This document shows, in pieces, positions 18,655 to 62,394 of a DNA stretch of 64,000 bases; the stretch's first letter is position 1, and the number at the start of each line of letters is the position of its first letter. The translations under genes were made by a program, and so were the position numbers. The stretch comes from Nostoc sp. ATCC 43529 (GTDB lineage: Bacteria > Cyanobacteriota > Cyanobacteriia > Cyanobacteriales > Nostocaceae). The stretch lies in the NCBI GenBank assembly GCA_003326205.1, contig LWTK01000058.1, forward strand, positions 2,476 to 66,475, read 5' to 3'. The notes under the pieces are model-generated. The model was not told the origin of the DNA. It searched no databases and saw nothing but the letters and a program-made list of their open reading frames with translations.

Positions 18655-19344
18655 GCATTAGCTAAAGTTATCTCAGATAATCCACTACTGATTTATTGAA
18701 TAATTACTTTTACTTCTTTCGATTCAGATTGTTCTGATGTTAAATACTTAGCTTTAATACCCTTAATTAAATTACGTGTCTCAGGTAGAGTTAAACTTTC
18801 TTAGAATAAGGGTTTACCCAAACTTTGAAAATATTGAAAATTAGTTTTTATAAAGTTATTGATTTTATTAACAAATATGTAGCCATCCGTATTTTAAGCA
18901 AACTGTATGAAATTTATTACTAATTTATATATCAACGAATGTTGGTTAAATATTGAATTTTTGTTGATTTGCTTTTTGAGATAGAGCTTACATAATAGAA
19001 CCAATCTATGTAAAAGAGAGTAGTCAGATTTCATTGAATAATGAGTATTTATTTGCTTCCTTATATAGCTAATTATCAGGGCAAGTATATGAGCATTTTA
19101 GAATTGATACAGATATTAAATTTTTTGCATAAGTATATTTATGATTATTTATTCTGGAAGTATTCATAGAATGATGTAGCCATTTTATGTGGTTTGCAGA
19201 TACCTATATAACCAATTAGTCTCATCGTTAAAGCTTGCTTATACTAAACGTATTTCAATTATTACAAATGATTTTTTATGAAAAATAAGGTTTAAAAGTT
19301 TCGATTTACATCAACAAAGTGTATTTGCGTTGTAGAGGATTGCT

Positions 19345-36783: not shown

Positions 36784-37218
36784 TTATTTATTTTGGCTTG
36801 AGGGTGATTTGTCTGGAACGTCTAGGTTAAATGCAGCAGCTATGGTCTGATCTACGAGTGCGATCGCATTATTGACAGTATCCAAAATTTGCTGGTTGTT
36901 TGTTTCCTTTGCTAAGTGAGATAACATCATCAGTTCGCTTTTGAGGTTTCCAGCAGTAGCGCGGATAGTTATCAAGTCGACAGATGGTTTTGCCGTTAGT
37001 ACCCGCCTTAACCCACAGGAACGTAAATATTCAGATGCAGTTACCCCTGTGGCGATCGCTTTTTCCTCAATGGTAGTTTTCTCTTGCTCAAAGAGGTATA
37101 CCTTGATGGATTTGGTTCGCTTTATGGAGTTACTTACCATACCTTGTTTTACTATGGGACTGAGTGGCATAGTTAGAGACTGCACTGAGGGAGTTGGGGA
37201 TAACCGGAAATCTGACAA
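36784..37218 (-). CDS. mobC: MobC relaxosome accessory protein (ribbon-helix-helix)
   Basis: SIKVYLFEQEKTTIEEKA...SEYLRSCGL; immediately upstream of the relaxase. The real start may be the internal MVSNS. Confidence 0.75.
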   Translation of the reverse strand: MSDFRLSPTPSVQSLTMPLSPIVKQGMVSNSIKRTKSIKVYLFEQEKTTIEEKAIATGVTASEYLRSCGLRRVLTAKPSVDLITIRATAGNLKSELMMLSHLAKETNNQQILDTVNNAIALVDQTIAAAFNLDVPDKSPSSQNK

Positions 37219-46235: not shown

Positions 46236-47183
46236 TTGATCCCTATGTCAAACATTCACGCCTTGCAAAAAATTTTTCCTGCTGGGTTTGATAACGGTTA
46301 CGGAAGCCTAAAACTTTTAGTCGATGGCTTTGAAGTAGTTCGTGTCCCCAGCTATATTTCCACAGCCGACATGGAAGATGTACCAGGGAGGGTAGTTTTT
46401 AATGGTAGTGCTTACACTGTCGGGGAATCAGCTTTCCGTACAGGTTATCATTTTGACCGGAACACGGATAACAATGAAAACAAAGTCAATAATGCGTTGT
46501 TGACATTATTCGGTGCGTTGGCACATCTGTCACACCGTAAGGCTTGGCACTTAAAATTAGTTGTCAGCTTACATGATGTTGGTCTGGCTGACGAATTGCA
46601 AAAAGTACTAAGTGGAGAATATCAGCCGATACTTGCTGGTAAACAATCAGAGGTGAAAGTAGAAGTGCTAAAAGTCGTTCTAGAGGGGATGGGTGCATTG
46701 TTTGGGCATCAACTACCCAAAAAATTAACAATTTTAGACTTTGGCAATGGAACGACTCTGTATTCTCGTTACAACCAGGGGAAGCGAGAAGTTCACTCTG
46801 CGTACCCCATCGGTGTAGAAGTTCTCATCGATGATATTTCCCAAAAAATGAAACATTTGAATGGCGGAAAAATTGGGGATGCTTCCAAAATCCGATTTTG
46901 TCTGGAAATGGGACATACCAAGTACAGCCGTGACATCGATATTAAAGATATATATAGTGCTTGTTTGAAAGATTGGTATGAAAAATATTTGAAGAAAGTG
47001 GTGAATTTGACACTTGATGCCAAGCATCAAGGGGATGAAATCTGGGCGATAGGTGGAGGCTGCCTCTTACCAGGATTTAAAAAGTTGTTAGAAAAGAATG
47101 GCTTCAAAATCCTGGACAATCCAGTGGAAGCTAATGTCTTTGGGCTTCTAGAAATGGCAAAAACCATTACGAGCAAGAATTAA
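46236..47183 (+). CDS. ParM/StbA-family actin-like ATPase (2)
   Basis: GFDNGYGSLK, VLEGMG, LDFGNGTT, AIGGG. Confidence 0.82.
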   Translation: MIPMSNIHALQKIFPAGFDNGYGSLKLLVDGFEVVRVPSYISTADMEDVPGRVVFNGSAYTVGESAFRTGYHFDRNTDNNENKVNNALLTLFGALAHLSHRKAWHLKLVVSLHDVGLADELQKVLSGEYQPILAGKQSEVKVEVLKVVLEGMGALFGHQLPKKLTILDFGNGTTLYSRYNQGKREVHSAYPIGVEVLIDDISQKMKHLNGGKIGDASKIRFCLEMGHTKYSRDIDIKDIYSACLKDWYEKYLKKVVNLTLDAKHQGDEIWAIGGGCLLPGFKKLLEKNGFKILDNPVEANVFGLLEMAKTITSKN

Positions 47184-47734: not shown

Positions 47735-48154
47735 CTAGAACGGAGGTTCTTGATCTAGGTCTTCATCTGTCGAAGTAACGTTATCTTCGAGTAGTTCTTT
47801 GGCAAAATCGGGAGTTTCAGGCGAGTGAGGGGTTTTACTAACCTGGGTGAGTTCGTTGATGGGTTGTGCTGACATAAAGTTTCTGATTACGAATGTGGCA
47901 ATCTTTTCTTTGTAATCACCCCTGTTATCAACTAGCAAATCGAGATATCCTTCTGCTGTGCCGTGTACGCCTTCCCCCTGTTCGTTAATAACGACGGCGG
48001 GTGCGCCCTTGGAACGGAATGGCATCTCGTCAGCAACTACTCCTTCCTTGGAACGGTAGTAGAATTCGGCGATCCCAAAGGCAATCAAGGAACCTTCTTT
48101 GTCGTGGGTAATGTTCACTGACTTAAGATTGATAGTTGCAGTATTATGAATCAT
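47735..48154 (-). CDS. Hypothetical protein, possible divergent SSB/OB-fold
   Basis: Beta-rich 139 aa ending DEDLDQEPPF, an SSB-like acidic tail; directly downstream of ssb. Confidence 0.5.
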   Translation of the reverse strand: MIHNTATINLKSVNITHDKEGSLIAFGIAEFYYRSKEGVVADEMPFRSKGAPAVVINEQGEGVHGTAEGYLDLLVDNRGDYKEKIATFVIRNFMSAQPINELTQVSKTPHSPETPDFAKELLEDNVTSTDEDLDQEPPF

Positions 48155-48226: not shown

Positions 48227-48610
48227 CTAAAAATTTGCGTTAGCTACAGTCTGTGTTTCGTTTGGTGCAGAAGTGGATGTAGATTCTTCCTTACGGGGTG
48301 AACCTAACAATTCAATAGCGTTGATTGTAATTACGGGTTTTTGCCGCATAGTGCCAGAATTTTTATCTGCCCAACGATCAAATCCAAACTCGCCAGTAAT
48401 TGCAATTTGGGTTCCTTTACGAACGTAATTTCCAATCACTTCTGCTTGATTTCCCCAGGCTACTAAATCAAACCAAAGGGCTTGTTCACTTCTGTAGGGT
48501 GGTCTGACTGCAATAGATATTGAAGCCTTAACTGCGCCAGACTCGAAATATTTGAGTTCTGGTTCTTGTCCGCATCTGCCAACCAGCATGACTTTGTTGA
48601 TATAGTTCAT
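48227..48610 (-). CDS. ssb: Single-stranded DNA-binding protein
   Basis: INKVMLVGRCGQEPELKYFESG, WFDLVAWG, YVRKGTQIAITG. Confidence 0.92.
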   Translation of the reverse strand: MNYINKVMLVGRCGQEPELKYFESGAVKASISIAVRPPYRSEQALWFDLVAWGNQAEVIGNYVRKGTQIAITGEFGFDRWADKNSGTMRQKPVITINAIELLGSPRKEESTSTSAPNETQTVANANF

Positions 48611-48847: not shown

Positions 48848-50026
48848 ATGCCTGAATATCTTCTCCTGAAGCGAGTAAGTATTTGTAAGCTGATGCTTTT
48901 GGCTTTGATGTGGATACAGTCGGATGAGGATAGCCAAAACCAGCTGACTTCTGGCTACTCATCTTCTTTGCGGGTAGAAAATCTTACCTGGTTAGGAGAA
49001 ACATCTGTTGGAGAAGATGTAGAGCATTTTTGTGATGTTTCAAATACAACTAGGATAGGCGTTTGGGGAGAAATTCTAGAACTAAAGTTAGTAGATTTAA
49101 TTGCTGATTTACCGACTTGTTTGCACGATGCGTCATGGTTTGCCCTACTGGCAACTACCATGATGCTAGTGGATAAGGAATTAGACCGAGTATGCATGCA
49201 TCCACAAGATGAGTATTTTGCCCGGACTATCGCGCTTGAAATTTTAGCAGATTTGGGTGATTCTTACTTAGCCAAAGGTCATCCTTATTTAGATTTTCCT
49301 CTATCGTTAGAAGACGCTAAATCATTACTGCCAGTTAATAGAAAGCAAGAGCTAAAAATCGAATTAGATAAATTTATTATTGATACTTATGAAGACGATT
49401 TTGAGGATCAATCTCCAGAGATTAGTGAGTTTTCACCTATCTATTTACAAGAGATTTTAAAAGAGTTTTTTACTGAATCTGATTGGCAGGGTGATATCAA
49501 TCAAGAGGCTGTTGCCCAACTGCAACAGAAGTATGGTTCGCAGTATTCAGAAGGTGCGTTTTCTGCTGAAACTGAGGGACACGAACGTTGGGGGAAAACG
49601 CTTGTTTTTCTAAAACAGTTTATAGGCCTGGATTCCAGCTTTATCGAAAGCCAGAGCGATTTATTCCTTGATGATGAATCTCAGGCGGCTGATTTACCTG
49701 ATTACTTCCGTATCAAGTCTCATTTAGAACGTTGGCAAGATAGAACAGTTGTCTTGTCCCGGTTGGTTCATACTTTGGTTTATTTCATGCTGGTAGGGCA
49801 AAATTATCATCCCAGTCATCTGCAAGATTTGATGGCTATTCCAGCTTCTTCACGGGCGATATCCAGCTTACAAGCTTGTTTGGGTGTAGCTGCTTACAGA
49901 AGTGGTTATTACATGGCTGCTTCAAATATTCCTGAATCAGAAGTTGGGCGCAACTGGCTTTTAGAAAAAGCTTTCCCTAGTCTGCGTGATTTTTATCAAA
50001 CAGGTCGGTTAAATGGGAAGCAATAA
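48848..50026 (+). CDS. Acidic helical hypothetical protein
   Basis: 392-aa ORF; no motif recognised. Confidence 0.6.
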   Translation: MPEYLLLKRVSICKLMLLALMWIQSDEDSQNQLTSGYSSSLRVENLTWLGETSVGEDVEHFCDVSNTTRIGVWGEILELKLVDLIADLPTCLHDASWFALLATTMMLVDKELDRVCMHPQDEYFARTIALEILADLGDSYLAKGHPYLDFPLSLEDAKSLLPVNRKQELKIELDKFIIDTYEDDFEDQSPEISEFSPIYLQEILKEFFTESDWQGDINQEAVAQLQQKYGSQYSEGAFSAETEGHERWGKTLVFLKQFIGLDSSFIESQSDLFLDDESQAADLPDYFRIKSHLERWQDRTVVLSRLVHTLVYFMLVGQNYHPSHLQDLMAIPASSRAISSLQACLGVAAYRSGYYMAASNIPESEVGRNWLLEKAFPSLRDFYQTGRLNGKQ

Positions 50027-50037
50027 TTAATATTTTA

Positions 50038-50766
50038 TTGTTGGTTTACAAATACAAATTTATATTTATGAATAAATACTTATTTATAGGATTGTTACTC
50101 TTACTCGTTGGATGTTCATCTCCAGAAAAAGAAGATAAAGTCTCGGCTATAGAATCAAATTCTTCACCTACCCCATCATTATCCTCAGCTAATGTTAATA
50201 ATGCTACGCCATCGCTAAATCCAGAAGTGTTGCCTGATTTATCGAATAAAGAGAAGCTTGGAGAAGTTAATGCAGAGAACGACTTAATTGACTTGTTCTA
50301 TTTTGATGGTAATGGTGTGAAAGTGAGTTTGACTGTAGCAGCTGATAAAGGTTGTTTTGTCTACGTGCGGCCCAGTACTCCAGACCGAGTTGGCGAGGTT
50401 GAAATTGAGTCATTACGGCGCGAGAAACTGGGTCTGTGGCGTTCGTATAATACTCAGCGACTTCTAACTCAACCTGCTGGCAATAAACTAAAGGTTTATT
50501 CATCAAGTGAGGAACTTTCTTCTACTTATGAAAATCCTGCCATATCACAAGAAATGCTTGTAGCAGTGAAGGAATTGAAAGAGCGTGAAAAATCGTTTAA
50601 ATTACTTTTACGTCAGGACTTGAGAGCTAGTGATTCAGCAAGACGAATTTATGTCAATCAGTGTCAGAAATTAGGTAATTTTTATTATAAAGAAGAACTA
50701 CCTCCTCTCACAGACAAGGAGAGGAAGGACTTTGAAAAGAGTGTTGAAAAAAGGACTGAAAATTAA
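50038..50766 (+). CDS. Hypothetical lipoprotein (probable start at MNKYLF)
   Basis: MNKYLFIGLLLLLVG|CSS lipobox followed by a Ser/Pro linker. Confidence 0.65.
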   Translation: MLVYKYKFIFMNKYLFIGLLLLLVGCSSPEKEDKVSAIESNSSPTPSLSSANVNNATPSLNPEVLPDLSNKEKLGEVNAENDLIDLFYFDGNGVKVSLTVAADKGCFVYVRPSTPDRVGEVEIESLRREKLGLWRSYNTQRLLTQPAGNKLKVYSSSEELSSTYENPAISQEMLVAVKELKEREKSFKLLLRQDLRASDSARRIYVNQCQKLGNFYYKEELPPLTDKERKDFEKSVEKRTEN

Positions 50767-51441
50767 TTATGAGAACAGTGATAATTGCTCCATCTGAATA
50801 TTACTTTCAGTTGTAGTTGCTTTAACAGGGTGTTTGTTCTTATTCGACAACCTTTTACCCCAACCTTCTTTCACCGCGTGTTTGACTATACGGGAACGGA
50901 TATCAGCAGCTAGGGTTTCATAATCAGAGCGGATTTTGTCATACTGAATTGGGGTTGTACCAATTTTCTCCCACAGTTTATCGTATTTGAAATTCTCAAA
51001 AGGTCTGTGCCTTACCAGGGCATCATAACTTGCCCAGAGGTAAACATCCGTCCATTCAGATGAAAGCGGCACTTCAAAAGCAATTGGCATCATAAGTGCA
51101 ACAACTTCGCTACTAGAGGCGAGTTTACCTACTTTTCCCTTGTCTATCTCTTCTAGCGCTGCATCTAATCTATCGACTGCGATCGCTTTTCCTACCCAGG
51201 ATGGAATTGACTGTTGCCAGCCGTTTTGCTGAGTTACAATTGGCCCGACGATGTATTGAACAATTTCACGACTTGCTCCTGCTAGATCGAGTAGACTGGC
51301 TGTTACAGCTTTGTTAATCCCTTGGCTGGTTAGTAGCTGAAGCATCTTTCTAGTGCTAGGAGTAAGAATTTCGCTAGCTTTTTGGCTTTTGCTGTTACGG
51401 ATGCTTTCTTCGACATCGAATAAGCTTTGCTGCTGGTTCAT
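50767..51441 (-). CDS. Hypothetical protein with beta-clamp-binding-like motifs at both ends
   Basis: Starts MNQQQSLFD and ends EQLSLFS; lies downstream of holB on the same strand. Confidence 0.7.
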   Translation of the reverse strand: MNQQQSLFDVEESIRNSKSQKASEILTPSTRKMLQLLTSQGINKAVTASLLDLAGASREIVQYIVGPIVTQQNGWQQSIPSWVGKAIAVDRLDAALEEIDKGKVGKLASSSEVVALMMPIAFEVPLSSEWTDVYLWASYDALVRHRPFENFKYDKLWEKIGTTPIQYDKIRSDYETLAADIRSRIVKHAVKEGWGKRLSNKNKHPVKATTTESNIQMEQLSLFS

Positions 51442-51462
51442 ATTCTTTATGTGTAAATAAAT

Positions 51463-51494
51463 ACTGCCAGCTAGAAATAGTTCTAACTGGCAGT
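51463..51494. terminator. Stem-loop between holB and 50767..51441
   Basis: ACTGCCAGCTAGAA-atag-TTCTAACTGGCAGT, 13/14 paired. Confidence 0.5.
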
Positions 51495-51519
51495 GCTTTT
51501 TGATAATGGGTGTGTTTTG

Positions 51520-52368
51520 CTATGGCAGAAGTAGGTTATCCCAAACGCTTCTAGGAGTAACGTGATGCAGCAATTGCTTCCTTGCTTGAGTAAATTTAGC
51601 TAGCAATTGAGTGTTTTTTAATTTCTGCCACCAGTCGTGTTGCAGGTAGGTAAGCAGCCATAATTGTGTCTCATGATTCCAGCTTGAGATGGAGTTACTC
51701 AAACTGAGTGCGTTGAGAATATCGTCAGGAGGCACTTCCAGTTGACTTGTGATTTCTTTTGAGATGGAAGCTAACATTGTGATGTTGGCGATCGCTTGAC
51801 CAGGACTGCCTGAACTCATAGCTAGTATTTTTTCTGTTACCTCGATTTGTTGGTCTTTCAGAACAGAAATAACCTCCTCATCAGTTAACCTTTGGAAAGG
51901 TATGATTTGACACCTACTCTTGATAGTGGGTAATAGCTTTTGAGGATAGGACGAGATCAGGATAAATGTTCCAGTTTTCGGTTCTTCCAGCGTCTTGAGA
52001 AGTTTGTTGGCGGCGGTAGGGTTGAGCATATCTGCTTCGTGGATAATCACCACCTTTTGCTTGGCCTTGACTGCACTAGTTGAAAGAAATTCAATTACCT
52101 CGCGCACCTGTTCTACTCGAATAGCAGGTATACCTTTCTGCTGGGAGGTGTTTTCGGGATGGGTTGGTTTGATTTGTAAGATGTCTAGATGGTTATTTTC
52201 TCCTGCGATCTCAGTGGCGATCGCCAGAGCAGTTTTTCCTTTCCCCACTCCCTCAATTTGACTGCTAAATAGGTATGCAGGAGCAATTTTATTCTGTTCG
52301 ATTGCTTCAGTCAGGAGAAGTTTGGCGGTATGCTGTCCGGTGATTTCTGTAAATGGGTTGTTTTTCAT
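51520..52368 (-). CDS. holB: DNA polymerase III clamp loader delta' subunit
   Basis: IAPAYLF, GVGKGKTA, IRVEQVRE, AANKLLKTLEEP, LLPTIKSRCQ. Confidence 0.88.
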   Translation of the reverse strand: MKNNPFTEITGQHTAKLLLTEAIEQNKIAPAYLFSSQIEGVGKGKTALAIATEIAGENNHLDILQIKPTHPENTSQQKGIPAIRVEQVREVIEFLSTSAVKAKQKVVIIHEADMLNPTAANKLLKTLEEPKTGTFILISSYPQKLLPTIKSRCQIIPFQRLTDEEVISVLKDQQIEVTEKILAMSSGSPGQAIANITMLASISKEITSQLEVPPDDILNALSLSNSISSWNHETQLWLLTYLQHDWWQKLKNTQLLAKFTQARKQLLHHVTPRSVWDNLLLP

Positions 52369-53324
52369 ATCGTAGAAATTTCAGCAATTCGACTGGTTAG
52401 GTTGTCAACTCCGCTTTTGAGTTCGGCTTCGAGTTGTACAAGTAAAGTAAGGCTGTTTTTAAGCTTTTGAACGCCTACAAACTTGACTTCATCTTTGAGG
52501 TAATACAATCTTTTGGGATTTTTCAGTTCTGCTATTTCTACAATCTTAGTATCAGATAATTTAGTTTCTATCCCAGCTTTGGTTATTAACCAAGTGCGGA
52601 AAATAGAGGTAAGTGTTGCTACTATTTTGAGCGGATGTTCATTATTATCTAGTAGTTTAGATACTTGCAATATTGCTAAAATGGGATGGTTTCTTAACAT
52701 AGCAATGGTAAGCTTTATATAGTCAGTATTATGATTCCCAACGAGCTGTTTTACTTCCTCAATAGAGATTATTTTTCCACTTGTATAAACAGCAAGTTTA
52801 GCGAATTCGCTATTGGCTCGTGCAGCGTTATTCCCAATTGCTTCAGCTAGGTAATCAGTGACATCTGGTGTGAGTTTAACTTGATGGATGGCTGCATACT
52901 TTCCTATCAAGTTAACTATCCCCTTTTTATCCCAACTAGGGACGAGGGTAAACTCTTCTTGTTGGGCATATTTTAGGATAGTTTTTACTACTGTTCTGCG
53001 CGAATCTGGCTTTTTGTTACCAGTAATTAGAAGAATATTGCTTGACGGTATTCGGGAAAGTTGATTTTCAAGTTCTTGGTTATTATCTTCATTTGATAAG
53101 CTTCCAATTAGAGAGTCGCTGTCTGTATGAATAATTTTGTTACCTTCTCCAAAGGGCAAAGTCATAACCTCGGTAAAGACTTTGGTAGCAATATTTTTCT
53201 CATTTCCAGATAGCTTAACGTAATTGAAAGCTCTCCATTGTGCATGAACATTTTGATTCACTAAATAATCAATTCTTTGATTGAGTGAGTAGCTATCTTC
53301 GCCGTAGTATAGGTATACAGTCAT
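52365..53324 (-). CDS. holA: DNA polymerase III clamp loader delta subunit
   Basis: VYLYYGEDSY, MTLPFGEG, KKPDSR, SEFAKLAVY, EHPLKIVATL; 4-bp overlap with holB. Confidence 0.85.
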   Translation of the reverse strand: MTVYLYYGEDSYSLNQRIDYLVNQNVHAQWRAFNYVKLSGNEKNIATKVFTEVMTLPFGEGNKIIHTDSDSLIGSLSNEDNNQELENQLSRIPSSNILLITGNKKPDSRRTVVKTILKYAQQEEFTLVPSWDKKGIVNLIGKYAAIHQVKLTPDVTDYLAEAIGNNAARANSEFAKLAVYTSGKIISIEEVKQLVGNHNTDYIKLTIAMLRNHPILAILQVSKLLDNNEHPLKIVATLTSIFRTWLITKAGIETKLSDTKIVEIAELKNPKRLYYLKDEVKFVGVQKLKNSLTLLVQLEAELKSGVDNLTSRIAEISTI

Positions 53325-53468
53325 GATAGATTAGATAAACATTTATTTATCAGGCGTTAGTCGTAAGCGGTGGTTTAAAAAAAGAAGAGTTAGTGTTAAC
53401 TCTTTCTATATCCTTAGTGTTTGTTATATAGCCGCTAGCAAAATATAGCGATCAGCAAATCCTTACAC

Positions 53469-54251
53469 TTAATTTTGTATTGGCTGTACTGACTTATGAT
53501 TTGAGACTTTCTCAACAGTATTTTCTACTGGTTGAGTACCCAAATATTTCCGCCAATAATCCAATTGTTGGAGATACTCTACGACTCCACTAGAACCAGT
53601 TACCTCATATAGCGCAATAGCTGTTTCCCACTCCTTTAAGCTAGCTTTTTTCTTGGAAAGAATTTTGACTATAGCTCCTGGAAGTTTAGTCTCTTTACCA
53701 GTATCTAAATTTAGGTGTGATAACCTTTCTAGTAATAGTTCTTCTTCTGATAAAGGAACACCACCATCTTCGATGTTTATAGTATGAAGTTGGGCACTAA
53801 TTCCTGATAGAGGAAGAGTATGCTGAATTAATTTTTTAACTTTCTTGGTTTTAGTATTCCTCCTTTTTGCTTTAACGATAACTGGGTTGTTTGGGTCTGC
53901 AACTTCGTAACACTGGGGAAGTTCTAGAGAAAGTTGACCTGTTAAGTGCCATGATGCAGTTCGTTTTTCTGGCGGGGTGATCCGGTACGAGAACTCAGCT
54001 GTTTTTCTTGCATCGCCAAATTTCCTTAATTTGACCCGCATCTTGTAGCTGATAATTCCTTGAATGTAGGTTTTTGGGTCTAATATTACTGGGTTTGTAT
54101 TTTCCCACCACTCAATTTCAACAACGCGATCGCCATCTAATTCATAGATATTTCTAACTCTGGCATTAGGATGAGATGCAAGGAATGAGTTCACCCAAGC
54201 CCTTTGTTTTTTATTAAGCCTGGGCTTGCGATATGAGGATTTATTTTTCAT
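53469..54251 (-). CDS. Basic hypothetical protein
   Basis: 260-aa Lys/Arg-rich ORF inside the replication cluster. Confidence 0.6.
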   Translation of the reverse strand: MKNKSSYRKPRLNKKQRAWVNSFLASHPNARVRNIYELDGDRVVEIEWWENTNPVILDPKTYIQGIISYKMRVKLRKFGDARKTAEFSYRITPPEKRTASWHLTGQLSLELPQCYEVADPNNPVIVKAKRRNTKTKKVKKLIQHTLPLSGISAQLHTINIEDGGVPLSEEELLLERLSHLNLDTGKETKLPGAIVKILSKKKASLKEWETAIALYEVTGSSGVVEYLQQLDYWRKYLGTQPVENTVEKVSNHKSVQPIQN

Positions 54252-54523
54252 TAGTTACTTTTCCAATTTAAGAATGACATCTCCATTAATACATCAATAA
54301 ATTAACGAACTTAATCAGTTAATTAATGACTGATACTGTTTTTACTAATTTGACTTTTAGCGATAATTTTTTGTTTGTATGAAGGACTGAAAATAGTTTA
54401 ACGAAAGCCGATTTTCTTGTAGGTATTTGTCATTATTTACCAATTGTTGATAATTCATGAATTTAAAAAAAGACTTGATATTTATTATTTTCATTGGTTA
54501 CGTTAAATATCAAGTTTGTTCAT

Positions 54524-56356
54524 CTAGAAAAGGGATAACTGACGTTTATTACCTTCTAGTATTTCAGGAGCGGCTATTTTGAGGATTTCTTCTCGCCTTT
54601 TTTCGATTAGGTCAAGATAGTATTGACGTGAATAGCTCTCATTTGTGCTGATATTAGTAATACCTCTGATTCCGTAATAGTAAATTACTACATCACCAGG
54701 CTTTCCTAATTTAAGAAGTTCTTTTTCCCCAACACGAATTTTGCGAGTAATGCAGAGTTTTTCTATCGGGTATTTTCCTGATAAAATCTGCGATTTTACT
54801 TCTCTGAAATATTCCTCTGCCGTAGATTGGTTTTGGATTAAGTAGGTTAGATATTCAACAGGGAATTCTTTCTCTAGCCTTGAGCGAGAACGGTTTCTCC
54901 AACTACCTTTGGGGATAATTCTGTTATCTTTCAGCCATAACAGATAGTTCTTAGTTCCCCTTTGCGGAATAAACATTGCATTGGCAATAAACTCTAATTT
55001 GACGGTTATCCCTTTGGGTAATTGAGACTGAAGTGTGGCATATACTTTTTCTGGGTTTGGATGAGTAAAGAACACCCCGTCAGTATCAACTTCTACAGGG
55101 GTTGCACCAGCTTGATTGATTACCTCAATCATGAATTGTAGGATGCGCCGACCGTAAGCTGTTACTAAGGCGGCTGCTTCCATATCGTTGAAGGCGAGTT
55201 CCGATGTTCCGAAGAACCCAAACTGAGAATTAGCTAAAACTTTGGTGGATTCTCTTTTTTCCTTGGCAACAATGTCTCCGGTGCTGGCAATTTGTTCCAA
55301 CCTTGATTTCTCATTTACCAAATATTGCAAGATGCTCAAGCCGATTCGCTTTGTATCCTTACGAGAGACAATTCCTTTCGACAATATGGTTTTGGGGTAC
55401 ATAGAACTGATATCGATGTATCCAACCTTTTTATATAGTCCTGGAATAGAGTAGGCTATTCCCCCTTGGAATTTATACTTACGGTCGGGTTTGGGTTTGT
55501 ATCCTGGATAGTGATGCGAGAATATTTGCTTCCACTTGGTGCCGTTACCAGCGAGGGCTAACTGCTGGAGGTTCATTCCCGGTACAACCAGTGCTTCATA
55601 GTGGTATGAGGGTACAAGTCTGTTAGCTATGAATTGCGTATCTTCCAAGTCGTAAATAAGATAATCCTTGATTTTCTGCCATCTCCTACTACCAGAACCG
55701 GCTTTCCAGCAGGCGAGAATTTCTTCATAGGGGAGAACCAGTCGCGCTTGCTTACGCAATCCCATTTCCAGTACCACCTGTTTAAGCGATCGCCCGTTAG
55801 TAAGTTCCTTGGCGACAAAATCCCACCTGAGAACGCAGATAAAGATATCTACGTGCAGGCAGTTGCGGATGAATACCTCCCGAATTTCCAGTGGTTCGCC
55901 GCGTACTTGGGCAGTTCGGATAGTGCGCTTCTTAGATGCAATTCTAAATGGATGAGGAATGCCGTGTAACTCGCAGCGGGTGATGAGAAACGGTAGGTCA
56001 AATTCTGTTCCATTGTAGGTGTAAATTACTTCTGGTTTGCTTGCTTCTATGTGTTTGAAAAACTCCAGGAGGATTTTGCTTTCGGCTTGATCCATAAAAA
56101 TGGCAATCTCTCCTATCTCCCTCATACAGCCAATTGCATAGATACGATTTTCTCTTGGATTTATCCCTGCCGTCTCAATATCGACTACCAGAGTTTTGAG
56201 CGTTCCGTAGGTCGGAATATTTACTGTGGGGTGCCACTCAGGTATTGGGGTAGTATCTGACCAGAATATGTCGAGTCTTTCCTCATCAACGATAATCTTA
56301 TTACCAGATTTGCTAATAAAATCTCGGTGGTTGTAATTCATAATCTCCAAAATCAA
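54524..56356 (-). CDS. Family-B DNA polymerase with 3'-5' exonuclease and a C-terminal beta-clamp motif
   Basis: Exo I VDIETAG, Exo II YNGTEFDLPFL, Exo III YLIYDLEDT; Pol motifs DISSMYP, KVLANSQFG, VDTDG; ends RQLSLF*. Confidence 0.88.
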   Translation of the reverse strand: MILEIMNYNHRDFISKSGNKIIVDEERLDIFWSDTTPIPEWHPTVNIPTYGTLKTLVVDIETAGINPRENRIYAIGCMREIGEIAIFMDQAESKILLEFFKHIEASKPEVIYTYNGTEFDLPFLITRCELHGIPHPFRIASKKRTIRTAQVRGEPLEIREVFIRNCLHVDIFICVLRWDFVAKELTNGRSLKQVVLEMGLRKQARLVLPYEEILACWKAGSGSRRWQKIKDYLIYDLEDTQFIANRLVPSYHYEALVVPGMNLQQLALAGNGTKWKQIFSHHYPGYKPKPDRKYKFQGGIAYSIPGLYKKVGYIDISSMYPKTILSKGIVSRKDTKRIGLSILQYLVNEKSRLEQIASTGDIVAKEKRESTKVLANSQFGFFGTSELAFNDMEAAALVTAYGRRILQFMIEVINQAGATPVEVDTDGVFFTHPNPEKVYATLQSQLPKGITVKLEFIANAMFIPQRGTKNYLLWLKDNRIIPKGSWRNRSRSRLEKEFPVEYLTYLIQNQSTAEEYFREVKSQILSGKYPIEKLCITRKIRVGEKELLKLGKPGDVVIYYYGIRGITNISTNESYSRQYYLDLIEKRREEILKIAAPEILEGNKRQLSLF

Positions 56357-56376
56357 TTATTGTTTTTTGGCATAAA

Positions 56377-56517
56377 TCAGCATTTTTTACCTTTGATAAT
56401 GCATGATTCGCCAAAACATTTGGAGCATCGCGGTAATTCATCAATATACGTATCGAAATCTGCGATCGCTGCTGGTAATTCAAGTCCTGTACGAAGGCTA
56501 ATTGCTGCAACTGGCAT
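56377..56517 (-). CDS. Possible 46-aa Cys-rich microprotein, not in the ORF track
   Basis: MPVAAISLRTGLELPAAIADFDTYIDELPRCSKCFGESCIIKGKKC*, ending just upstream of polB. Confidence 0.3.
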   Translation of the reverse strand: MPVAAISLRTGLELPAAIADFDTYIDELPRCSKCFGESCIIKGKKC

Positions 56518-56764
56518 AATTTTAATCGGATACTTCTAAAATGCCAGTTGTTAAATTTTGTTGTGGTATTACTTGATATCTTAATTTTTTGCTTCCCAGT
56601 CAGGATAGTCTTTATTAATATTGAGGCTTACTGCACAAGGTAGATATTGCTGTAGATGAAAGTGTATTATATTTAATGTAGTTTTTGAATAAGCCTGAAA
56701 AAATCTTTCCCCAAAGTTTTTATTGGGGAAAGTAAGTGCTTTTACAAAGTGACGAACATTTGAA

Positions 56765-58126
56765 TTAGGCAGTTTGTAATTGAGACTTCATCTGAAGCTC
56801 TTGTACCAGTTGTACCCACGCAGGTGCTTTTTTACCTTTAATGGGAGTAACATTGTTCCAATGCCTTTCGAGTTCAGATTGAGATAAATGTGGGAGTTGT
56901 TCTTTACCCCAATTGATAGCATCTTGGATTGTTTTCCAATTAGTCCAAGGTTGTTTTTCTTCTTTGATATTGGTTAACTCAATGAGTGTCGCTTCCAACC
57001 AAAGTTTAGCTGCCTCCGAGTCACGCATTAACTGTTGTCTTGACATTAACAGGGCAATACTTGCCTGAATCTGGGTTAGTTCCCACATCTGAGAAATAGT
57101 AACGAGTTCCTGCCAAGTGTCTTCCTCCAGTTGAGTAATTTGTCTATTATCAGGAGCAGTTTTAGCCACTAGCAGGTCTTTGAGAAACCCAGTTAAACTT
57201 GAGTATATGACGAATGGGTTTTTGCCATACTCAATTAAGTCTTGGAGGATTTGTAAGTTAGTTGTTACGTCTCCTTTAGCAAGGTTTTCTGTTAGGGTAA
57301 GTAGGTCATGTTCGGGAACGACACCTGATAATTCCCAAACCCAATTTGGTGTGATTTCATCTACTCCCAGGTTGCTCAATTGATCGAGCAATACAAGACA
57401 GTTGCGAATAAAACCTCCACAAGACTTGACGATCGCCCAAATACCAGGTGCGTTAATGTTGATGTTTTCATTCTGGGCAACTTTTGATAAATACTGAACA
57501 AGTGTTTCTAGTCCTACTCTCCTAAAATCAAACTTTTGACAGCGCGAGATGATAGTTTCAGGAACCTTGTGTATTTCAGTTGTGCAGAAGATGAAAACTA
57601 CATGACGGGGTGGATTTTCAATTGTCTTGAGGAGTGCTTGCCACGATTGACTGCTCAGGGCATGACATTCATCAATAATGAAAATTTTGTATCTTCCCTC
57701 AACTGCTGCAAACTGGGTAGTGGAAATTAACTCGCGGATTGTTTCTACCCCGCTATTGCTGGCAGCATCTAACTCAGTTACATCCAGTGAAGAAGAGGCT
57801 GTAATTCCCTTGCATGAATTGCATTCTCCGCAGGGCTTGGTTGTTGGCTCATCGGTTAACTGACAGTTAAGGGATTTAGCCATGATGCGGGCGGTGCTAG
57901 TCTTGCCTGTGCCTTTGGGGCCGTTAAATAGGTAGGCGGGTGCAATCTTCTGGAGTGCGATCGCCGTCCCTTGCGCGTCTCCTTTAGGAGAAGGCGGGCG
58001 TTTAGCGATCGCGGAGTCACTCCCTACTGGGAGTATCGCATTTATGAGAGTGCGGACGATATGTTCTTGCCCGATTACTTCACTAAGGGTCTGGGGACGG
58101 TATTTGAGATGTAGTGGTTGGTACAT
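56765..58126 (-). CDS. dnaX: DNA polymerase III gamma/tau clamp-loader ATPase
   Basis: LKYRPQTL, GPKGTGKTS, the PCGECNSC zinc module, ELDAASN, IIDECH, ETIISRCQ. Confidence 0.92.
   Translation of the reverse strand: MYQPLHLKYRPQTLSEVIGQEHIVRTLINAILPVGSDSAIAKRPPSPKGDAQGTAIALQKIAPAYLFNGPKGTGKTSTARIMAKSLNCQLTDEPTTKPCGECNSCKGITASSSLDVTELDAASNSGVETIRELISTTQFAAVEGRYKIFIIDECHALSSQSWQALLKTIENPPRHVVFIFCTTEIHKVPETIISRCQKFDFRRVGLETLVQYLSKVAQNENININAPGIWAIVKSCGGFIRNCLVLLDQLSNLGVDEITPNWVWELSGVVPEHDLLTLTENLAKGDVTTNLQILQDLIEYGKNPFVIYSSLTGFLKDLLVAKTAPDNRQITQLEEDTWQELVTISQMWELTQIQASIALLMSRQQLMRDSEAAKLWLEATLIELTNIKEEKQPWTNWKTIQDAINWGKEQLPHLSQSELERHWNNVTPIKGKKAPAWVQLVQELQMKSQLQTA
57957..58039. repeat. 75-bp in-frame insertion at a HIP1 site inside dnaX
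   Basis: NAI-[LPVGSDSAIAKRPPSPKGDAQGTAI]-ALQK. Two GCGATCGC copies plus a split ATCGC; internal hairpins ACTCCC..GGGAGT and TCTCCT..AGGAGA. Confidence 0.75.
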
Positions 58127-58192
58127 AATTTCGATGATAAACGAGTGTTTTATTTACTTCCTACCAGTGTGGTTGGTAGGAAGTTTGATTTT

Positions 58193-59569
58193 TTAGGCAG
58201 TCGCCGCTTCTTTTTTCGTTCGTGGCGATCGTGAGGTTGACTTCCCTTTGTTAGTATCTTTCGCTACTACCGTTGGCGTTTCTATTTGAGGAGTTTCACT
58301 ATCGTCTGTTGCCTGTGCCACATTTGCTACTTCTTCAGTACTAGACTCAGTTTGAGTGCTAACTTCTGTTACTTCTTCAGTACCAGGCTCACTTTGAGTG
58401 CTGACTTTCGCCTTTGTACTTTGGCTATTTACCTTTCCAAACCCCTGCTTGATTTCCACAGGCATTACCAGATACAACTGATTGAGCAGCCCTCCCATCG
58501 GGCAGACAATGACTGGTTGCGTGGGTTTGTTGCACCGCACCACGATTTCATCGGTACTGATATGCTTTAATCCTTCGATAAGGTAGTCGATGTTTAATCC
58601 AATACTGATGTTTTCTGAATTACTAGTTACCGATTTCATCAGTACCGAGTCAACTGCATCCCCAATATCAGTAGCTTCGGTGTATAGTGTTGCTTGTGTA
58701 GCTTCCAATTCCCAGAGGATTTTGACAACCTTTTGCTTGCGTTCGGCTAGATAACTTACCCGCTTCAGCGCGCTCTCAAATCCCTTGCGCTCTAATGTAA
58801 ATTCATACTCAAACGACCGGGGAATCAAGCTATTGATTTTGGGATATTCTCCCTCCAGAAGCCGGGAAATGAGCTTTGTATTGGGAAGGCTAAACTCGAT
58901 AGTTCTATCTGATAGAAGAATATTGCACACGCTCGTATCGGCGCTTTGAGAGAGAATTTTGTTTAACTCGCCAAGTGACTTACCTGGAACGGTGAAGTCG
59001 ATTGGGTCAGAATATTCGCTATCGAGTGTTCCTGTTACTAGCGCTAATTTGTGACTATTTGTACTAGCAGCTTGCCACTTGTTGGTATCAATTTTGAAGT
59101 TGACACCAGTTAAAACCAACTTTGTTTCGTCGCTGCTGGCGCAATAGAGCGTCCCTTCAAGTGCAGCTTGGAGTTTCTTGGCACTTAAGTTTATCTCTGT
59201 TGGATTTTCTGCCTTTGGAAGTGTTGGGAACTCGTCAGATTTTCCGCCAATTAGTCGGCACTTACCGCTATTGTGAGTAATTATGCAGGCTTGATTTTCT
59301 ACTTCTAGGGTAATTTCGCCTTTAACATTACTAACAGTATCAGTTAGTAGTTTGGCAGGGAGTGCTACCTGACCTGAAATTTCGACATTAGCGGTGGTTG
59401 TAGTGTGAATTGTGAGGTTAAGGTTTGTACCTGTTGCTGATACTATCCCGTCTTCATCTGCAATCAGTAAGATATTTCCTAAAATTGGGTCAGTGGGTTT
59501 AGGACTGATTGCGAGGTAAGCAGTTTCTAGAATTTCTGCGAGTTTAGATTGTTCAATGGTTAGTTTCAT
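58193..59569 (-). CDS. dnaN: DNA polymerase III beta sliding clamp with a long C-terminal tail
   Basis: SATGTNL, ASTNSHKLA, SRLLEGEYP, IGLNIDYL, YLVMPV; then ~85 low-complexity residues. Confidence 0.92.
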   Translation of the reverse strand: MKLTIEQSKLAEILETAYLAISPKPTDPILGNILLIADEDGIVSATGTNLNLTIHTTTTANVEISGQVALPAKLLTDTVSNVKGEITLEVENQACIITHNSGKCRLIGGKSDEFPTLPKAENPTEINLSAKKLQAALEGTLYCASSDETKLVLTGVNFKIDTNKWQAASTNSHKLALVTGTLDSEYSDPIDFTVPGKSLGELNKILSQSADTSVCNILLSDRTIEFSLPNTKLISRLLEGEYPKINSLIPRSFEYEFTLERKGFESALKRVSYLAERKQKVVKILWELEATQATLYTEATDIGDAVDSVLMKSVTSNSENISIGLNIDYLIEGLKHISTDEIVVRCNKPTQPVIVCPMGGLLNQLYLVMPVEIKQGFGKVNSQSTKAKVSTQSEPGTEEVTEVSTQTESSTEEVANVAQATDDSETPQIETPTVVAKDTNKGKSTSRSPRTKKEAATA

Positions 59570-59649: not shown

Positions 59650-60642
59650 TTAGTAAGGCAGTTGTTCCATCTCAGTACTGTATGCTGTATAATCATGACC
59701 TCCTGTACTAGGAGGAAGTGCTGCTATTGGCATATCGGCTGCACCTATGAGGCGGTTATGTTCTGCTACAACGGTTGATGTTTTACCGATGCGGTGAGAG
59801 AATTCGGGATTTGCCTGCATCGTTGTTTGGATATGGATTTCTTTGGACTCTGAGAAGAATTCTAGAAAATCGCTTCCATCCGGGTTTGGTGATTTGTAAG
59901 AAGTGACAACTGCTACCCAAGATTTATCTCTTTGGTTAACTGCTTCTTTCGGTTCAAGGGATGGTGTGAAGGTAGGTTGAAATGCACCAAGGCGATGAAA
60001 CTCTGCACGTTTTTCAGCGACAGTTGTATCAGTAAATCGGGCGAATGCAACCTCTAGTTCGCGTTGGAACTGTTTGTAAGCCTCGCCAAATTTTGATGAT
60101 GCAACGCCTTTGATTGACAAGACAATTGGTACTGAGTGCAGGTTGTTATTATTTTCATCGACAAGTTGCAACAAGTAGAATCGTCTCAATACTGCGGCAT
60201 CTTTGCCGAGTGCTTGGTACATTTCGTACCCATCAGGTGATTCGTACACTCCCACAATTTTGCCATCATCGCGCTGTTCAATATATCTGGGAGAAATATC
60301 AAGAATGTGCATTCTGGGCGATTGCAACAACACTCCCATTTCTGGCGTACCACTGGAGAAGGTGTGCTTGTGTGTAGGTTCTTGTCCTTGCCAGTTAATT
60401 CCTGCTAAATACTTATCTTTTATAAACAACCCAACTTTTTCTGCTTCCATGTGGTTGATGACTTGGCAGATGCAGATATTGCTAATCGGCGCATTGTACT
60501 CAGGATTTGCAAATTTAGAAATAGCTGATTTACGCTTTTGTATGTTTGCCCCATTCTGAACGGTTTGTTGAGGAGGTTCTAACTCGGACGCTGCGCTTTC
60601 TTCAATAGCAGAATTAGTAGGCTTTGTTTGATTTCTTGCCAT
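59650..60642 (-). CDS. DUF5895-like hypothetical protein
   Basis: GVLLQSPRM, RRFYLLQLVDENN..LH..PIVLSIKG, FQPTF motifs recalled from this cyanobacterial family. Confidence 0.55.
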   Translation of the reverse strand: MARNQTKPTNSAIEESAASELEPPQQTVQNGANIQKRKSAISKFANPEYNAPISNICICQVINHMEAEKVGLFIKDKYLAGINWQGQEPTHKHTFSSGTPEMGVLLQSPRMHILDISPRYIEQRDDGKIVGVYESPDGYEMYQALGKDAAVLRRFYLLQLVDENNNNLHSVPIVLSIKGVASSKFGEAYKQFQRELEVAFARFTDTTVAEKRAEFHRLGAFQPTFTPSLEPKEAVNQRDKSWVAVVTSYKSPNPDGSDFLEFFSESKEIHIQTTMQANPEFSHRIGKTSTVVAEHNRLIGAADMPIAALPPSTGGHDYTAYSTEMEQLPY

Positions 60643-60773
60643 AATTTTAATTAATTGAAATCAATCTTTAATGCGTCAAGCAAAAAGCCGTTGTAAAAAA
60701 TAAAAGTCGTCTGTTATAAAGACGACTTGAAAGATTTATTAATTTTTCACTATTTAGATACAGTTTTCATCAT

Positions 60774-61123: not shown

Positions 61124-61342
61124 TTATCTCCTTGTTCGTTGGGGTTTAATTTCAAGCATTTTATTAGTAAGTTTGGTGACATTACTGACTTTCCAACCAG
61201 CAAGCTTACACTTAGTAACTGCTAGTTCTAATTCTTGCTGTGTAAGGATTTTGTATCTCGCATAGTTTCCGAATTTAGGGAAAATGTACGTGACATACCT
61301 AGTTTCATCAATTTGGCAGTACGCCATACGTTTGTGGTACAC
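61124..61342 (-). CDS. Hypothetical protein
   Basis: 72 aa; its start overlaps the stop of the methyltransferase. Confidence 0.55.
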   Translation of the reverse strand: MYHKRMAYCQIDETRYVTYIFPKFGNYARYKILTQQELELAVTKCKLAGWKVSNVTKLTNKMLEIKPQRTRR

Positions 61343-62394
61343 TATGGTTTAATTATTTTGATGATTCTGGTGGCTACATTTGTAGGGTTATTTGAACTCA
61401 AAAAGGCATCTTTATCTACCAACTCGACATAGCTCTTATTGCTCTGTAGCCACTCTTTGAAGCTTTGATACTTCCGGTTGAAGAAAACCGATTCAGGGAC
61501 GACTGAAACTAATACACCACCTGATATAATTAACTTCCAAGCTTGATAGATATGTTCGACAAGTTCGCAAAATGGAGGATTCATGATACAGGCATTGTAT
61601 AAATGACTGGGGTTAAACTCCAGAAAGTTTTTCCCTACGAGATTAAATCCTTTGAGTTCTAGAATTTGTCGTAGGTTGTAATTCACTTCAACTACCTCTA
61701 GTTGGACATTGGAGTAGGTTTTAGTGATATATTCAGCAATATTTCCGCTACCAGCGCTCGGCTCTAAAATTCGCCAATTTGGTTCAATATCTGCCAGTTG
61801 AATAAGCCGTTGACAGACTGGTTTGGGAGTAGGAAAGAAATCTCCAGATTTCATGCCAATGATTTCTAACTCAAGCTTATTAAGTTGTTGCTTGGTAGTA
61901 TCAATTGCTTCAGGTTTTACTATCTGTTGAATTTCTGTTATTGCTGATATGATTTCGCCTGATGTATTTAACCCGGCGCGACTGAGAGATTTTACCCAGT
62001 CTTGGTAATATTCGCCTTCTAGTATTTCTTGGACTTTCTGGCTAATTTCTCCACTTTGAGAAATCCTAAATAGCACTTCCACCTGTGATTTACGAGATAT
62101 ACCGCGTAGTATTGGTGGGATATTTCCTATTTCCCACATTTGTGCGATCGCAAATAACCAAGACTGGATAATCTCAAGTTCAATTCCTTCTTGGATTATC
62201 CCTTGAGCTATAGTTTTACGGCGCTTGGTTGCCCTTTGATTCCCAATAGTAGGATTTTTCTTTTGGTCAATTCTTGACTGCATTGAGGCAGCTAGTTTGC
62301 GGAGAGCTTCTGCTTTTTCTAAGTTAGGAATATTGAAAATATCTAGTGATGAGTTATCCTCGTTGTAGGACAGATTTAGTAGAGATAGTTGCAT
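61342..62394 (-). CDS. Class I SAM-dependent (N6-adenine-type) DNA methyltransferase
   Basis: DFFPTP, ILEPSAGSGNIA (motif I), CIMNPPF (motif IV); starts MQLSLL. Confidence 0.8.
   Translation of the reverse strand: MQLSLLNLSYNEDNSSLDIFNIPNLEKAEALRKLAASMQSRIDQKKNPTIGNQRATKRRKTIAQGIIQEGIELEIIQSWLFAIAQMWEIGNIPPILRGISRKSQVEVLFRISQSGEISQKVQEILEGEYYQDWVKSLSRAGLNTSGEIISAITEIQQIVKPEAIDTTKQQLNKLELEIIGMKSGDFFPTPKPVCQRLIQLADIEPNWRILEPSAGSGNIAEYITKTYSNVQLEVVEVNYNLRQILELKGFNLVGKNFLEFNPSHLYNACIMNPPFCELVEHIYQAWKLIISGGVLVSVVPESVFFNRKYQSFKEWLQSNKSYVELVDKDAFLSSNNPTNVATRIIKIIKP

Follow-up and report, generated by a model that had tools for sequence, protein, structure and literature searches.

Gene content of the locus

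The window analysed here, a 64,000-nucleotide stretch of contig LWTK01000058.1 from Nostoc sp. ATCC 43529, matches plasmid pC052_E of Nostoc sp. C052 at 95% identity and carries, on its minus strand, genes for a beta sliding clamp, a clamp loader and a compact family-B DNA polymerase, in the transcription order dnaN, dnaX, polB, Y260, holA, holB, X224 (Table 1). An initial annotation, made from the sequence alone, had described a single minus-strand run of dnaN, dnaX, polB, holA and holB with ssb nearby. The coordinates of these open reading frames (ORFs) proved exact and curated models agree with the names, but the range that it gave for the run also holds two genes that it left unnamed, Y260 and X224. 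The genes form one coherent, conserved module, which comprises ten of the window's 51 ORFs and is found on twelve Nostocales plasmids, among them pCC7120beta of the model strain PCC 7120 and a plasmid of A. variabilis ATCC 29413. Eleven of the twelve are typed as conjugative, and by PLSDB typing the sister plasmids are conjugative, MOBP and MPF_T. Part of the module has been visible in databases all along: RefSeq already names dnaN, dnaX and holA on the sister plasmids, while PolB goes under the label "3'-5' exonuclease" and HolB under "AAA family ATPase".

Several details refine the gene calls. Homologues of polB start at an ATG at 56341, which gives a product of 605 amino acids (aa). The holA and holB genes overlap by 4 nt, and HolA matches both the N-terminal and the C-terminal DNA_pol3_delta domains of Pfam; the best NCBIfam models for the loader subunits are ones that we take to be cyanobacterial. 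The ssb gene lies about 2 kb from the run and encodes a protein ending in ANANF, and the DUF5895 gene, which is syntenic with the module, encodes a protein with the C-terminus E[EQ]LPY. Only two plus-strand ORFs (o392 and o242; 48848-50766) break the same-strand run. On the sister plasmids the same-strand array extends past the window's end into ThiF, MPN and E2 genes, a prim-pol gene and a DEAD/DEAH helicase gene, and this extended order also adjoins a 55%-identical PolB in Anabaena PCC 7108. Searches of Pfam, NCBIfam, PHROG and PADLOC returned no match for X224, Y260, o139, o392, o115, o116 or o227, and no Rfam family matched anywhere in the window. Beside ssb, o139 (47735-48154, minus strand) ends in DEDLDQEPPF, which resembles the acidic tip of bacterial SSBs. 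Stem-loops with stems of 9-14 bp stand between module genes at 51463-51494, 56705-56732, 58156-58184 and 60704-60728; they might serve as terminators or attenuators, or resemble single-strand promoters.

Table 1. Module genes, clamp-binding-type motifs and conjugation genes of the window, in window coordinates.
Feature	Position	Strand	Evidence or remark
dnaN, beta sliding clamp, 458 aa	58193-59569	-	TIGR00663 2.4e-79, 267 bits against a cut-off of 138
dnaX, gamma-like clamp-loader ATPase, 453 aa	56765-58126	-	TIGR02397 1.9e-121, 406 bits against a cut-off of 250
polB, compact proofreading family-B polymerase	54524-56356	-	DNA_pol_B_exo1 1.6e-12, DNA_pol_B 4e-8
PolB QLSLF, C-terminal clamp-binding motif (putative)	54527-54541	-	directly 5' of the TAG stop
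Y260, 260 aa, between polB and holA	53469-54251	-	ORF call, no domain match in Pfam, NCBIfam, PHROG or PADLOC
Y260 QLSLEL, internal	53919-53936	-	putative clamp-binding hexapeptide
Y260 QHTLPL, internal	53808-53825	-	putative clamp-binding hexapeptide
holA, clamp-loader delta	52365-53324	-	TIGR01128 1.2e-51, 176 bits against a cut-off of 80
holB, clamp-loader delta-prime	51520-52368	-	NF005638 2e-95, 319.5 bits against a cut-off of 230; PF13177
X224, 224 aa, 3' of holB	50767-51441	-	ORF call, no domain match
X224 QQSLF, N-terminal	51418-51432	-	putative clamp-binding motif
X224 QLSLF, C-terminal	50773-50787	-	putative clamp-binding motif
ssb	48227-48610	-	PF00436 5e-23
DUF5895 gene, directly upstream of dnaN	59650-60642	-	PF19247 7e-30
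Orphan DNA methyltransferase	61342-62394	-	PHROG methyltransferase families 1e-52; PADLOC methyltransferase models
Methyltransferase MQLSLL, N-terminal	62377-62391	-	putative clamp-binding motif
MOBP-type relaxase	35210-36742	-	PF03432 1.3e-20
NikA-like accessory gene	36784-37218	-	PF21983 2.3e-13

The polymerase and its C-terminal motif

PolB carries the exonuclease motifs DIE (Exo I), NGTEFD (Exo II) and YLIYD (Exo III) together with the polymerase motifs DISSMYP (A), KVLANSQFG (B), DTDG (C) and KNY (KxY), and none of these varies among 24 homologues, the most distant of which are 36% identical. Its scores exceed the Pfam cut-offs for PF03104 and PF00136, and the ratio of nonsynonymous to synonymous substitution (dN/dS) for the gene is 0.08-0.13. 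In the AlphaFold model (pLDDT 90.8, pTM 0.80) only KRQLSLF, the last seven residues, is disordered, as would be expected for a flexible docking tail. The closest structures found by Foldseek are the PolBs of Thermococcales (9N, KOD and Tgo; E 1e-30, probability 1.00, TM 0.65-0.72), and a profile of the PolB family matches archaeal PolB with an E of 1e-46 and E. coli Pol II with an E of 2e-19. Since the profile alignment begins at residue 133 of the archaeal chains, the N-terminal domain is essentially missing from PolB, in which about 50 residues stand ahead of Exo I.

The end of the protein had been read in the initial annotation as RQLSLF, and so it is: QLSLF lies exactly where that reading put it (Table 1), with the preceding arginine encoded at 54542-54544. 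Moreover, QL[ST]LF stands at the extreme C-terminus of essentially all full-length cyanobacterial PolB homologues, those with as little as about 41% identity included. Among the 51 ORFs of the window there are four copies of the tetrapeptide QLSL, every one within the ten-ORF module; shuffling gives an expectation of 0.13, and none of 5000 shuffles reached four; judged on its sequence and these counts, the PolB motif is not a chance match. Given the conserved QL[ST]LF, along with a clamp pocket that is kept at 22% identity (below), sequence gives good support to the predicted partnership of PolB and a beta clamp.

Two other identities for the polymerase were considered and rejected. It is not a Pol II orthologue of group G1, given the profile values above and scores far under the cut-offs of the NCBIfam Pol II models. 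Nor is it a protein-primed PolB or a piPolB, since its best matches in both sequence and fold are RNA/DNA-primed archaeal PolBs and it comes with a clamp tail and a private clamp.

It is on the matter of precedent that the initial annotation needs correction. Its premise was that family-B polymerases normally work on PCNA or gp45 clamps, hence its term "hybrid" for a replisome built on PolB and beta. The C-terminus of E. coli Pol II, as read from NC_000913.3, is QLGLF, and Pol II binds beta through this peptide (PMC3716654); a 2026 survey reports beta-clamp-binding motifs in both major proofreading groups of bacterial PolB, G1 (Pol II) and G3 (PMC12926913). A family-B polymerase on a beta clamp is thus already established, and the finding is less surprising than was claimed. 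The resemblance to Pol II extends to the family-B fold, the 3'-5' proofreading, the C-terminal clamp pentapeptide (QLGLF in one, QLSLF in the other) and, as predicted here, the use of a bacterial beta clamp that a loader of the DnaX type puts in place. The differences are equally plain: Pol II is encoded on the chromosome, plays an accessory part and works with the clamp and loader of the cell, whereas the plasmid enzyme is encoded with a private set on a conjugative element, lacks the N-terminal domain and shows only the modest similarity to Pol II noted above.

The plasmid PolB instead groups with G3 (EpsilonN-like, for Pol-epsilon-N-like), an assignment drawn from motif C and phage relatives rather than from a tree. 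Its motif C reads VEVDTDG, and the glutamate in this motif (ExDTDG) is a hallmark of the G3 clade (Kazlauskas et al. 2020, PMC7544198). In a tblastn search of a phage collection, PolB matched only phages of Nostoc, Anabaena and Dolichospermum (37-38% identity) and of Salinibacter (24-28%), and the PolBs of Nostoc and Salinibacter phages are the only viral members listed for G3 (PMC7544198). Distant G3-like PolBs from Myxococcales, Gemmatimonadetes and other groups have QxSLF-type motifs near their C-termini. Within G3 the plasmid enzyme is nevertheless distinctive in two respects. The group is described with a canonical N-terminal domain, which the plasmid PolB is nearly without, and it is minor PolB groups, not G3, that are known to lack it (PMC12926913); and G3 genes elsewhere are solitary, whereas this subclade travels with dnaN, dnaX, holA and holB.

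A link between the plasmid and phage enzymes was drawn earlier by Chenard et al. (2016, PMC4916379), who found the PolBs of pCC7120beta, A. variabilis plasmid C and a Cyanothece plasmid to be closest to those of phages A-1 and N-1; that paper does not discuss a clamp, a loader or the motif. The PolBs of cyanophages A-1, N-1 and Elbi do belong to the same clade as the plasmid enzyme, at the 37-38% identity just given. Where they differ is in the tail, for of the phage enzymes two C-termini were read, those of Elbi and Dfl-JY23, and both are without QLSLF. None of A-1, N-1 and Elbi appeared in the dnaN search among the matches listed. The plasmid PolB clade (2016), clamp-binding motifs in G3 and family-B polymerases on beta are therefore already known. 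We found no literature description of the co-inheritance, the tailed private clamp, the tau-less DnaX loader or the network of clamp tags that are set out below.

A private clamp and a tau-less loader

Residues 1-373 of the plasmid DnaN make up a clamp, with the three Pfam clamp domains PF00712, PF02767 and PF02768, and the protein aligns with solved beta clamps across residues 1-372. It is only 22% identical to E. coli beta, and yet nine residues of the peptide pocket are identical (L155, T172, H175, L177, P242, N320, Y323, M362 and P363, in E. coli numbering). The pocket residues are also the same in plasmid and chromosomal cyanobacterial clamps, the latter being the closest kin of the plasmid clamp outside the plasmid clade (38-40% identity). 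An altered pocket as the source of clamp specificity is ruled out by this equality.

What does set the plasmid clamps apart is a tail. Beginning right past the pocket-forming C-terminus, residues 374-458 of DnaN (58196-58450) form an extension of 85 aa that is acidic and rich in serine and threonine, with a basic end. All plasmid-clade clamps have such a tail, 54-111 aa long, against two residues at this place in chromosomal clamps. In the window it derives partly from a 42-bp tandem duplication (repeat at 58328-58407).

The loader is similarly pared down. DnaX consists of domains I-III, with matches to PF13177 (DNA_pol3_delta2), PF00004 (AAA) and PF12169 (gamma3), and has a Walker A motif, an SRC motif and a Zn module; HolB has an intact P-loop (GVGKGKT) and an SRC motif. 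On the 640-position cyanobacterial model NF011510, whose cut-off it does not reach, DnaX spans positions 32-388. The tau domains IV and V are missing, and the protein ends about 55 residues past domain III in a short conserved tail, LTPIxGKKAPAWV. Without the tau domains, DnaX would be unable to hold DnaE or DnaB in the known way.

These features lead to the reading that we favour, though by no wide measure of confidence: the plasmid loader would load the plasmid clamp, and PolB would dock on it through QLSLF and copy plasmid DNA without Pol III alpha.

Clamp-binding-type motifs on putative partner proteins

PolB is not alone in carrying such a motif. Conserved clamp-binding-type motifs are present on five proteins, namely PolB, X224, Y260, the methyltransferase and a small neighbour of the prim-pol. 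X224 has one near each end (Table 1), and both are kept down to 52% identity. All 26 homologues of this helical protein (dN/dS 0.19) are within this plasmid family. A structure model built from an alignment of 14 sequences reached a pLDDT of 43, too poor for a fold search, and X224 is therefore characterised by its motifs only.

The two hexapeptides of Y260 are Hda-like and about 37 residues apart. As QLSL[EYT][LI] and Q[HYQL][TSK]LPL they are kept down to 48-49% identity, and in a 30%-identical homologue the first reads QLALDI and the second is absent. The Y260 family, whose dN/dS is 0.22-0.25, amounts to 37 clusters among 1.84 billion representatives, nearly all with one or two QLSLP[LIFV]-type motifs; none of these 37 contains a relative longer than 281 aa, so that there is no lead from a larger architecture. 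With two motifs each, X224 and Y260 would have enough to fill both pockets of a clamp dimer.

In the orphan methyltransferase the motif is N-terminal, MQLSL[LF], and kept down to 60% identity, and the enzyme may be tethered to the clamp; our literature search found no bacterial precedent for a clamp-tethered DNA methyltransferase. The fifth protein is encoded outside the window, just downstream of the prim-pol. It is 155-164 aa long and ends in NNQLSLF, or in SNQLTLF in Anabaena 7108 (29187-29681 in locus L001, which is pC052_E; 30787-31269 in L002; 720-1187 in L094), and it may link the primase to the clamp.

Since the pockets are identical, these tags should bind host and plasmid clamps alike, and this opens the way to a quite different use for them. 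The tagged proteins, X224 and Y260 in particular, could block or redirect the host clamp, while the tailed private clamp sustains plasmid synthesis. The paired motifs of X224 and Y260, sufficient for the pockets of a clamp dimer, would suit such a task, as would the fact that only the plasmid clamps are tailed and that the tail starts beside the pocket. However, the argument is purely inferential: there is no sign of toxicity, the plasmids coexist stably with their hosts, and tagging for the private clamp would account for the motifs equally well. Host manipulation of this kind strikes us as far-fetched.

Co-inheritance and mosaic evolution

The synteny of homologous loci was surveyed at 79 genome loci. 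Wherever PolB is at least 45% identical and the contig is long enough, dnaN, dnaX, holA and holB are always alongside; the other cases are short or truncated contigs. The initial annotation had called for a check of just this synteny, and the module passes it throughout that range of identity. Co-inheritance spans Nostocales, Chroococcidiopsis, Phormidium and Hydrococcus, and in Phormidium it survives a rearranged gene order. Y260, X224, ssb, the DUF5895 gene and the methyltransferase are the usual further companions, with ssb syntenic in most loci. For PolBs of at most 41% identity, no clamp or loader gene was found within the 10 kb around them that were searched. One of these low-identity PolBs keeps a QLSLFS ending and lies on a cyanophage-like contig, which encodes a DnaB helicase but not a clamp; such clampless relatives presumably use the clamp of the host.

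All module genes have a dN/dS of 0.04-0.25, with ssb at 0.04. Purifying selection of this strength, with invariant catalytic residues, rules out a decayed relic. A phage origin of the whole module is likewise rejected: among the matches listed, phages of the A-1/N-1 type have only PolB in common with it, the nearest outside kin of the clamp are the cyanobacterial chromosomal clamps, and the loader subunits, as noted, score best on models that we take to be cyanobacterial.

The survey also bears on whether PolB is a replicase at all or, rather, an accessory enzyme of repair, restart or gap filling in the manner of Pol II, lending damage tolerance to plasmid or host. Among bacterial family-B enzymes with a C-terminal clamp motif, the best studied serves in repair and restart; elsewhere, G3 PolBs are encoded singly on chromosomes, with neither a clamp nor a loader gene adjacent; and conjugative plasmids often carry accessory polymerases (umuDC homologues) near their leading regions. 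Yet a repair enzyme would have no need of a private clamp, a complete loader, an SSB and a prim-pol, and the strict co-inheritance of these parts across distant lineages argues for one machine. The proofreading site is intact, moreover, and the fold is of the replicative type. We think it improbable that repair is what this polymerase is for.

Within the module, the genes have not all shared one history. Compared with locus L022, polB and dnaX have a synonymous divergence (dS) of about 2 and the flanking genes 0.3-0.5; compared with L019, PolB is 82% identical and DnaN, HolA and HolB are 46-52% identical. The polB-dnaX block seems to have been swapped among plasmid lineages as a unit. The spacer between dnaX and polB (56357-56764) is an insertion hotspot, holding a plus-strand methyltransferase gene in pC052_E and a gene for a 208-aa protein in pCC7120beta, and RNA contigs of related strains differ in their joints at 56378. 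On a 15-kb contig, the 625-aa protein P0048 starts like DnaX and ends like PolB, QLSLF included; it is either a dnaX-polB deletion fusion or an assembly artefact.

Absent replication genes, origin and expression

The window, 183 of the 186.6 kb of pCC7120beta and 34 kb of pC052_E were searched by tblastn with E. coli DnaE, DnaB and DnaG, and no match was better than E=1; with DnaE alone, no match in the window or in the 183 kb of pCC7120beta had an E below 4. The RefSeq annotation of the whole of pCC7120beta has no dnaE, dnaB or dnaG either. The initial annotation had noted the absence of a family-C alpha subunit, DnaB and DnaG from the window, and there it stands, as the searches returned noise only; its suggestion to look for a dnaE elsewhere on the replicon likewise brought none to light on the sister plasmid. 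For DnaB and DnaG the statement does not carry the implication that priming and unwinding functions are wanting, since a prim-pol and a DEAD/DEAH helicase are encoded just past the window's end in the sister plasmids. That the module is a bacterial Pol III holoenzyme is rejected: no family-C subunit was found in the window or in the 183 kb of pCC7120beta searched, and DnaX is without the alpha-binding domain.

As to where replication might begin, the GC skew changes sign at 17-19 kb, inside an AT-rich gap of 2.1 kb (17178-19344) in which no iterons or tandem repeats were found. A ParA-like gene and a DUF6753 gene lie next to the gap, which may mark no more than the border with cargo genes; in pCC7120beta the skew does not switch at the homologous ParA/DUF6753 region. 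Across the backbone (18000-64000) the plus strand is rich in G and T, and most backbone genes are on the other strand. In pCC7120beta the cumulative GC skew is monotonic over about 170 kb, and the skew fits unidirectional replication or repeated single-strandedness of the inferred T-strand. Two actin-like (ALP_N) genes on the plus strand (40998-42233 and 46236-47183) stand on either side of a ParA/ParB pair, an arrangement that hints at the presence of more than a single partition system.

The module is covered by RNA-seq assemblies from related strains, and the depth of coverage varies from gene to gene. These assemblies are contigs, including some of 65 kb, and in some runs the depth is nearly uniform.

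Taken to its strictest form, a replicase built on PolB would be the sole vegetative replicase of the plasmid, and the host Pol III core would never be involved. The parts list for this is full (helicase, prim-pol, SSB, clamp, loader and polymerase), no dnaE was found, DnaX lacks tau, no recognisable Rep gene is annotated on pCC7120beta, and the RNA-seq contigs that cover the module differ in depth from gene to gene. But neither an origin nor an initiator is linked with the module, and the helicase is of the DEAD/DEAH type rather than a known replicative hexamer. Copies of the module on megabase-scale scaffolds labelled chromosomal would be replicated passively, and the 65-kb contigs raise the possibility that the RNA data reflect DNA carry-over. 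In addition, ssb, the orphan methyltransferase, the E1/E2/JAB neighbours and co-orientation with the relaxase fit a leading region (below). Hence we hold this strict version to be doubtful, while granting it a serious place among the readings.

Conjugation context

The relaxase and NikA-like genes, at 35.2-37.2 kb, point away from the module, the start of which is about 10 kb further along. Their orientation puts the probable origin of transfer (oriT) at about 37.2-38.1 kb, and the module would thus be on the leading side. The genes on the strand of the relaxase are o139, ssb, the run from X224 to dnaN, the DUF5895 gene and the methyltransferase and, beyond the window, the E1/E2/JAB genes, the prim-pol and the helicase. 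Downstream of the relaxase, a 2624-aa ORF (23840-31714, minus strand) with no Pfam domain is kept in pC052_E and pCC7120beta.

Genes of leading regions are oriented so that the incoming strand can serve as their template for transcription, and such regions have ssb and orphan methyltransferases as hallmarks (PMC11541004). The module resembles the leading regions described by Samuel and Burstein (2024, PMC11541004) in its putative place on the non-relaxase side of the probable oriT, in its co-orientation and in its ssb and orphan methyltransferase, and it is like plasmid primases such as Sog and TraC in that the element supplies its own priming function. It is unlike them in its core, since in PMC11541004 a clamp goes unmentioned and the sole DNA polymerase discussed is of the umuDC type. 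The probable leading-side position and the co-orientation with the relaxase make a role in establishment as plausible as one in vegetative replication.

An establishment replisome may be pictured in some detail. It would prime the incoming strand, load the tailed clamp and have PolB copy the strand, while a tethered methyltransferase protected the new duplex and X224 and Y260 controlled clamp occupancy or blocked the host clamp. The new duplex would then be methylated ahead of host restriction, by an enzyme that would be the bacterial counterpart of DNMT1 on PCNA. In this elaborate version the module would be a self-contained replisome on a beta clamp, orthogonal to Pol III, and the methyltransferase would be the first DNA methyltransferase of a bacterium for which recruitment by a clamp is known; we rate it as unlikely. 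Vegetative and establishment roles are, in any case, compatible with each other.

A proposed PolB replisome on a beta clamp

The observed identities, motifs, pocket, synteny, selection and absence of dnaE, dnaB and dnaG can be brought together in the favoured reading, a DNA-synthesis machine of a conjugative Nostocales megaplasmid in which PolB would work on the private clamp. A minimal loader (tau-less DnaX, delta and delta-prime) would load the plasmid clamp at primer ends on SSB-coated plasmid DNA. The primers probably come from the prim-pol encoded just past the window, the small neighbour of which is also QLSLF-tagged. The compact, proofreading PolB would dock on the clamp by its C-terminal QLSLF and extend processively, and the same clamp would be a hub for the tagged methyltransferase, X224 and Y260. 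The first task would be to turn the incoming single strand into duplex in a new host, with perhaps maintenance too. Since DnaX is without a tau arm and the searches found no DnaE, the machine would not be one that could be built around the host's Pol III alpha. Of the PolB-on-beta holoenzyme proposed in the initial annotation, then, the module, the motifs, the pocket, the tau-less DnaX and the lack of dnaE all speak in its favour, and what falls away is the label "hybrid", in view of the Pol II precedent.

Several points weigh against this reading. The pocket is the same in both clamps, so that the motif is no proof that PolB uses the plasmid clamp rather than that of the host, and relatives without a private clamp retain the motif. 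The annotation of pCC7120beta includes no Pol I-type nuclease and no ligase; host functions would thus still be needed to mature Okazaki fragments, and the independence would at most be from Pol III alpha. An origin or initiator was sought and none was identified. Support from expression is weak, given the 65-kb contigs and the nearly uniform depth of some runs, which may point to DNA carry-over. As for the conjugative setting, a search for oriT in the gap at 37.2-38.1 kb gave only a weak 12-nt inverted repeat, and the module of pCC7120beta is parted from the relaxase by about 70 kb of metal-resistance cargo. Finally, the interactions and activities, together with the template and the timing, are ones that we infer from sequence and a structure model.

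Among known systems one of like overall design is that of T4, likewise a mobile element with its own PolB (gp43), clamp (gp45), loader (gp44/62), primase and helicase (gp41/61) and SSB (gp32), and with a C-terminal docking peptide. The difference is in the kind of parts, for the clamp and loader here are bacterial, a beta clamp and DnaX, delta and delta-prime that are kin of cyanobacterial chromosomal genes, whereas those of T4 are PCNA/RFC-like. By sequence, the plasmid enzyme is best described as a G3-type clamp-binding PolB that acquired a private clamp, a tau-less loader and tagged partners on a conjugative plasmid.

Should the favoured reading hold, the module would be a natural bacterial replisome in which a family-B polymerase, rather than Pol III alpha, works with the usual kind of beta clamp and DnaX-type loader. 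For replication biology, it would offer a compact system of six or seven small proteins and would show how a tau-less loader is coupled to a polymerase. For clamp biology, it would provide a testable set of clients, a methyltransferase among them. In biotechnology, the module would be a starting point for orthogonal replication in cyanobacteria. For the plasmids themselves, it could explain how large cyanobacterial plasmids become established in new hosts.

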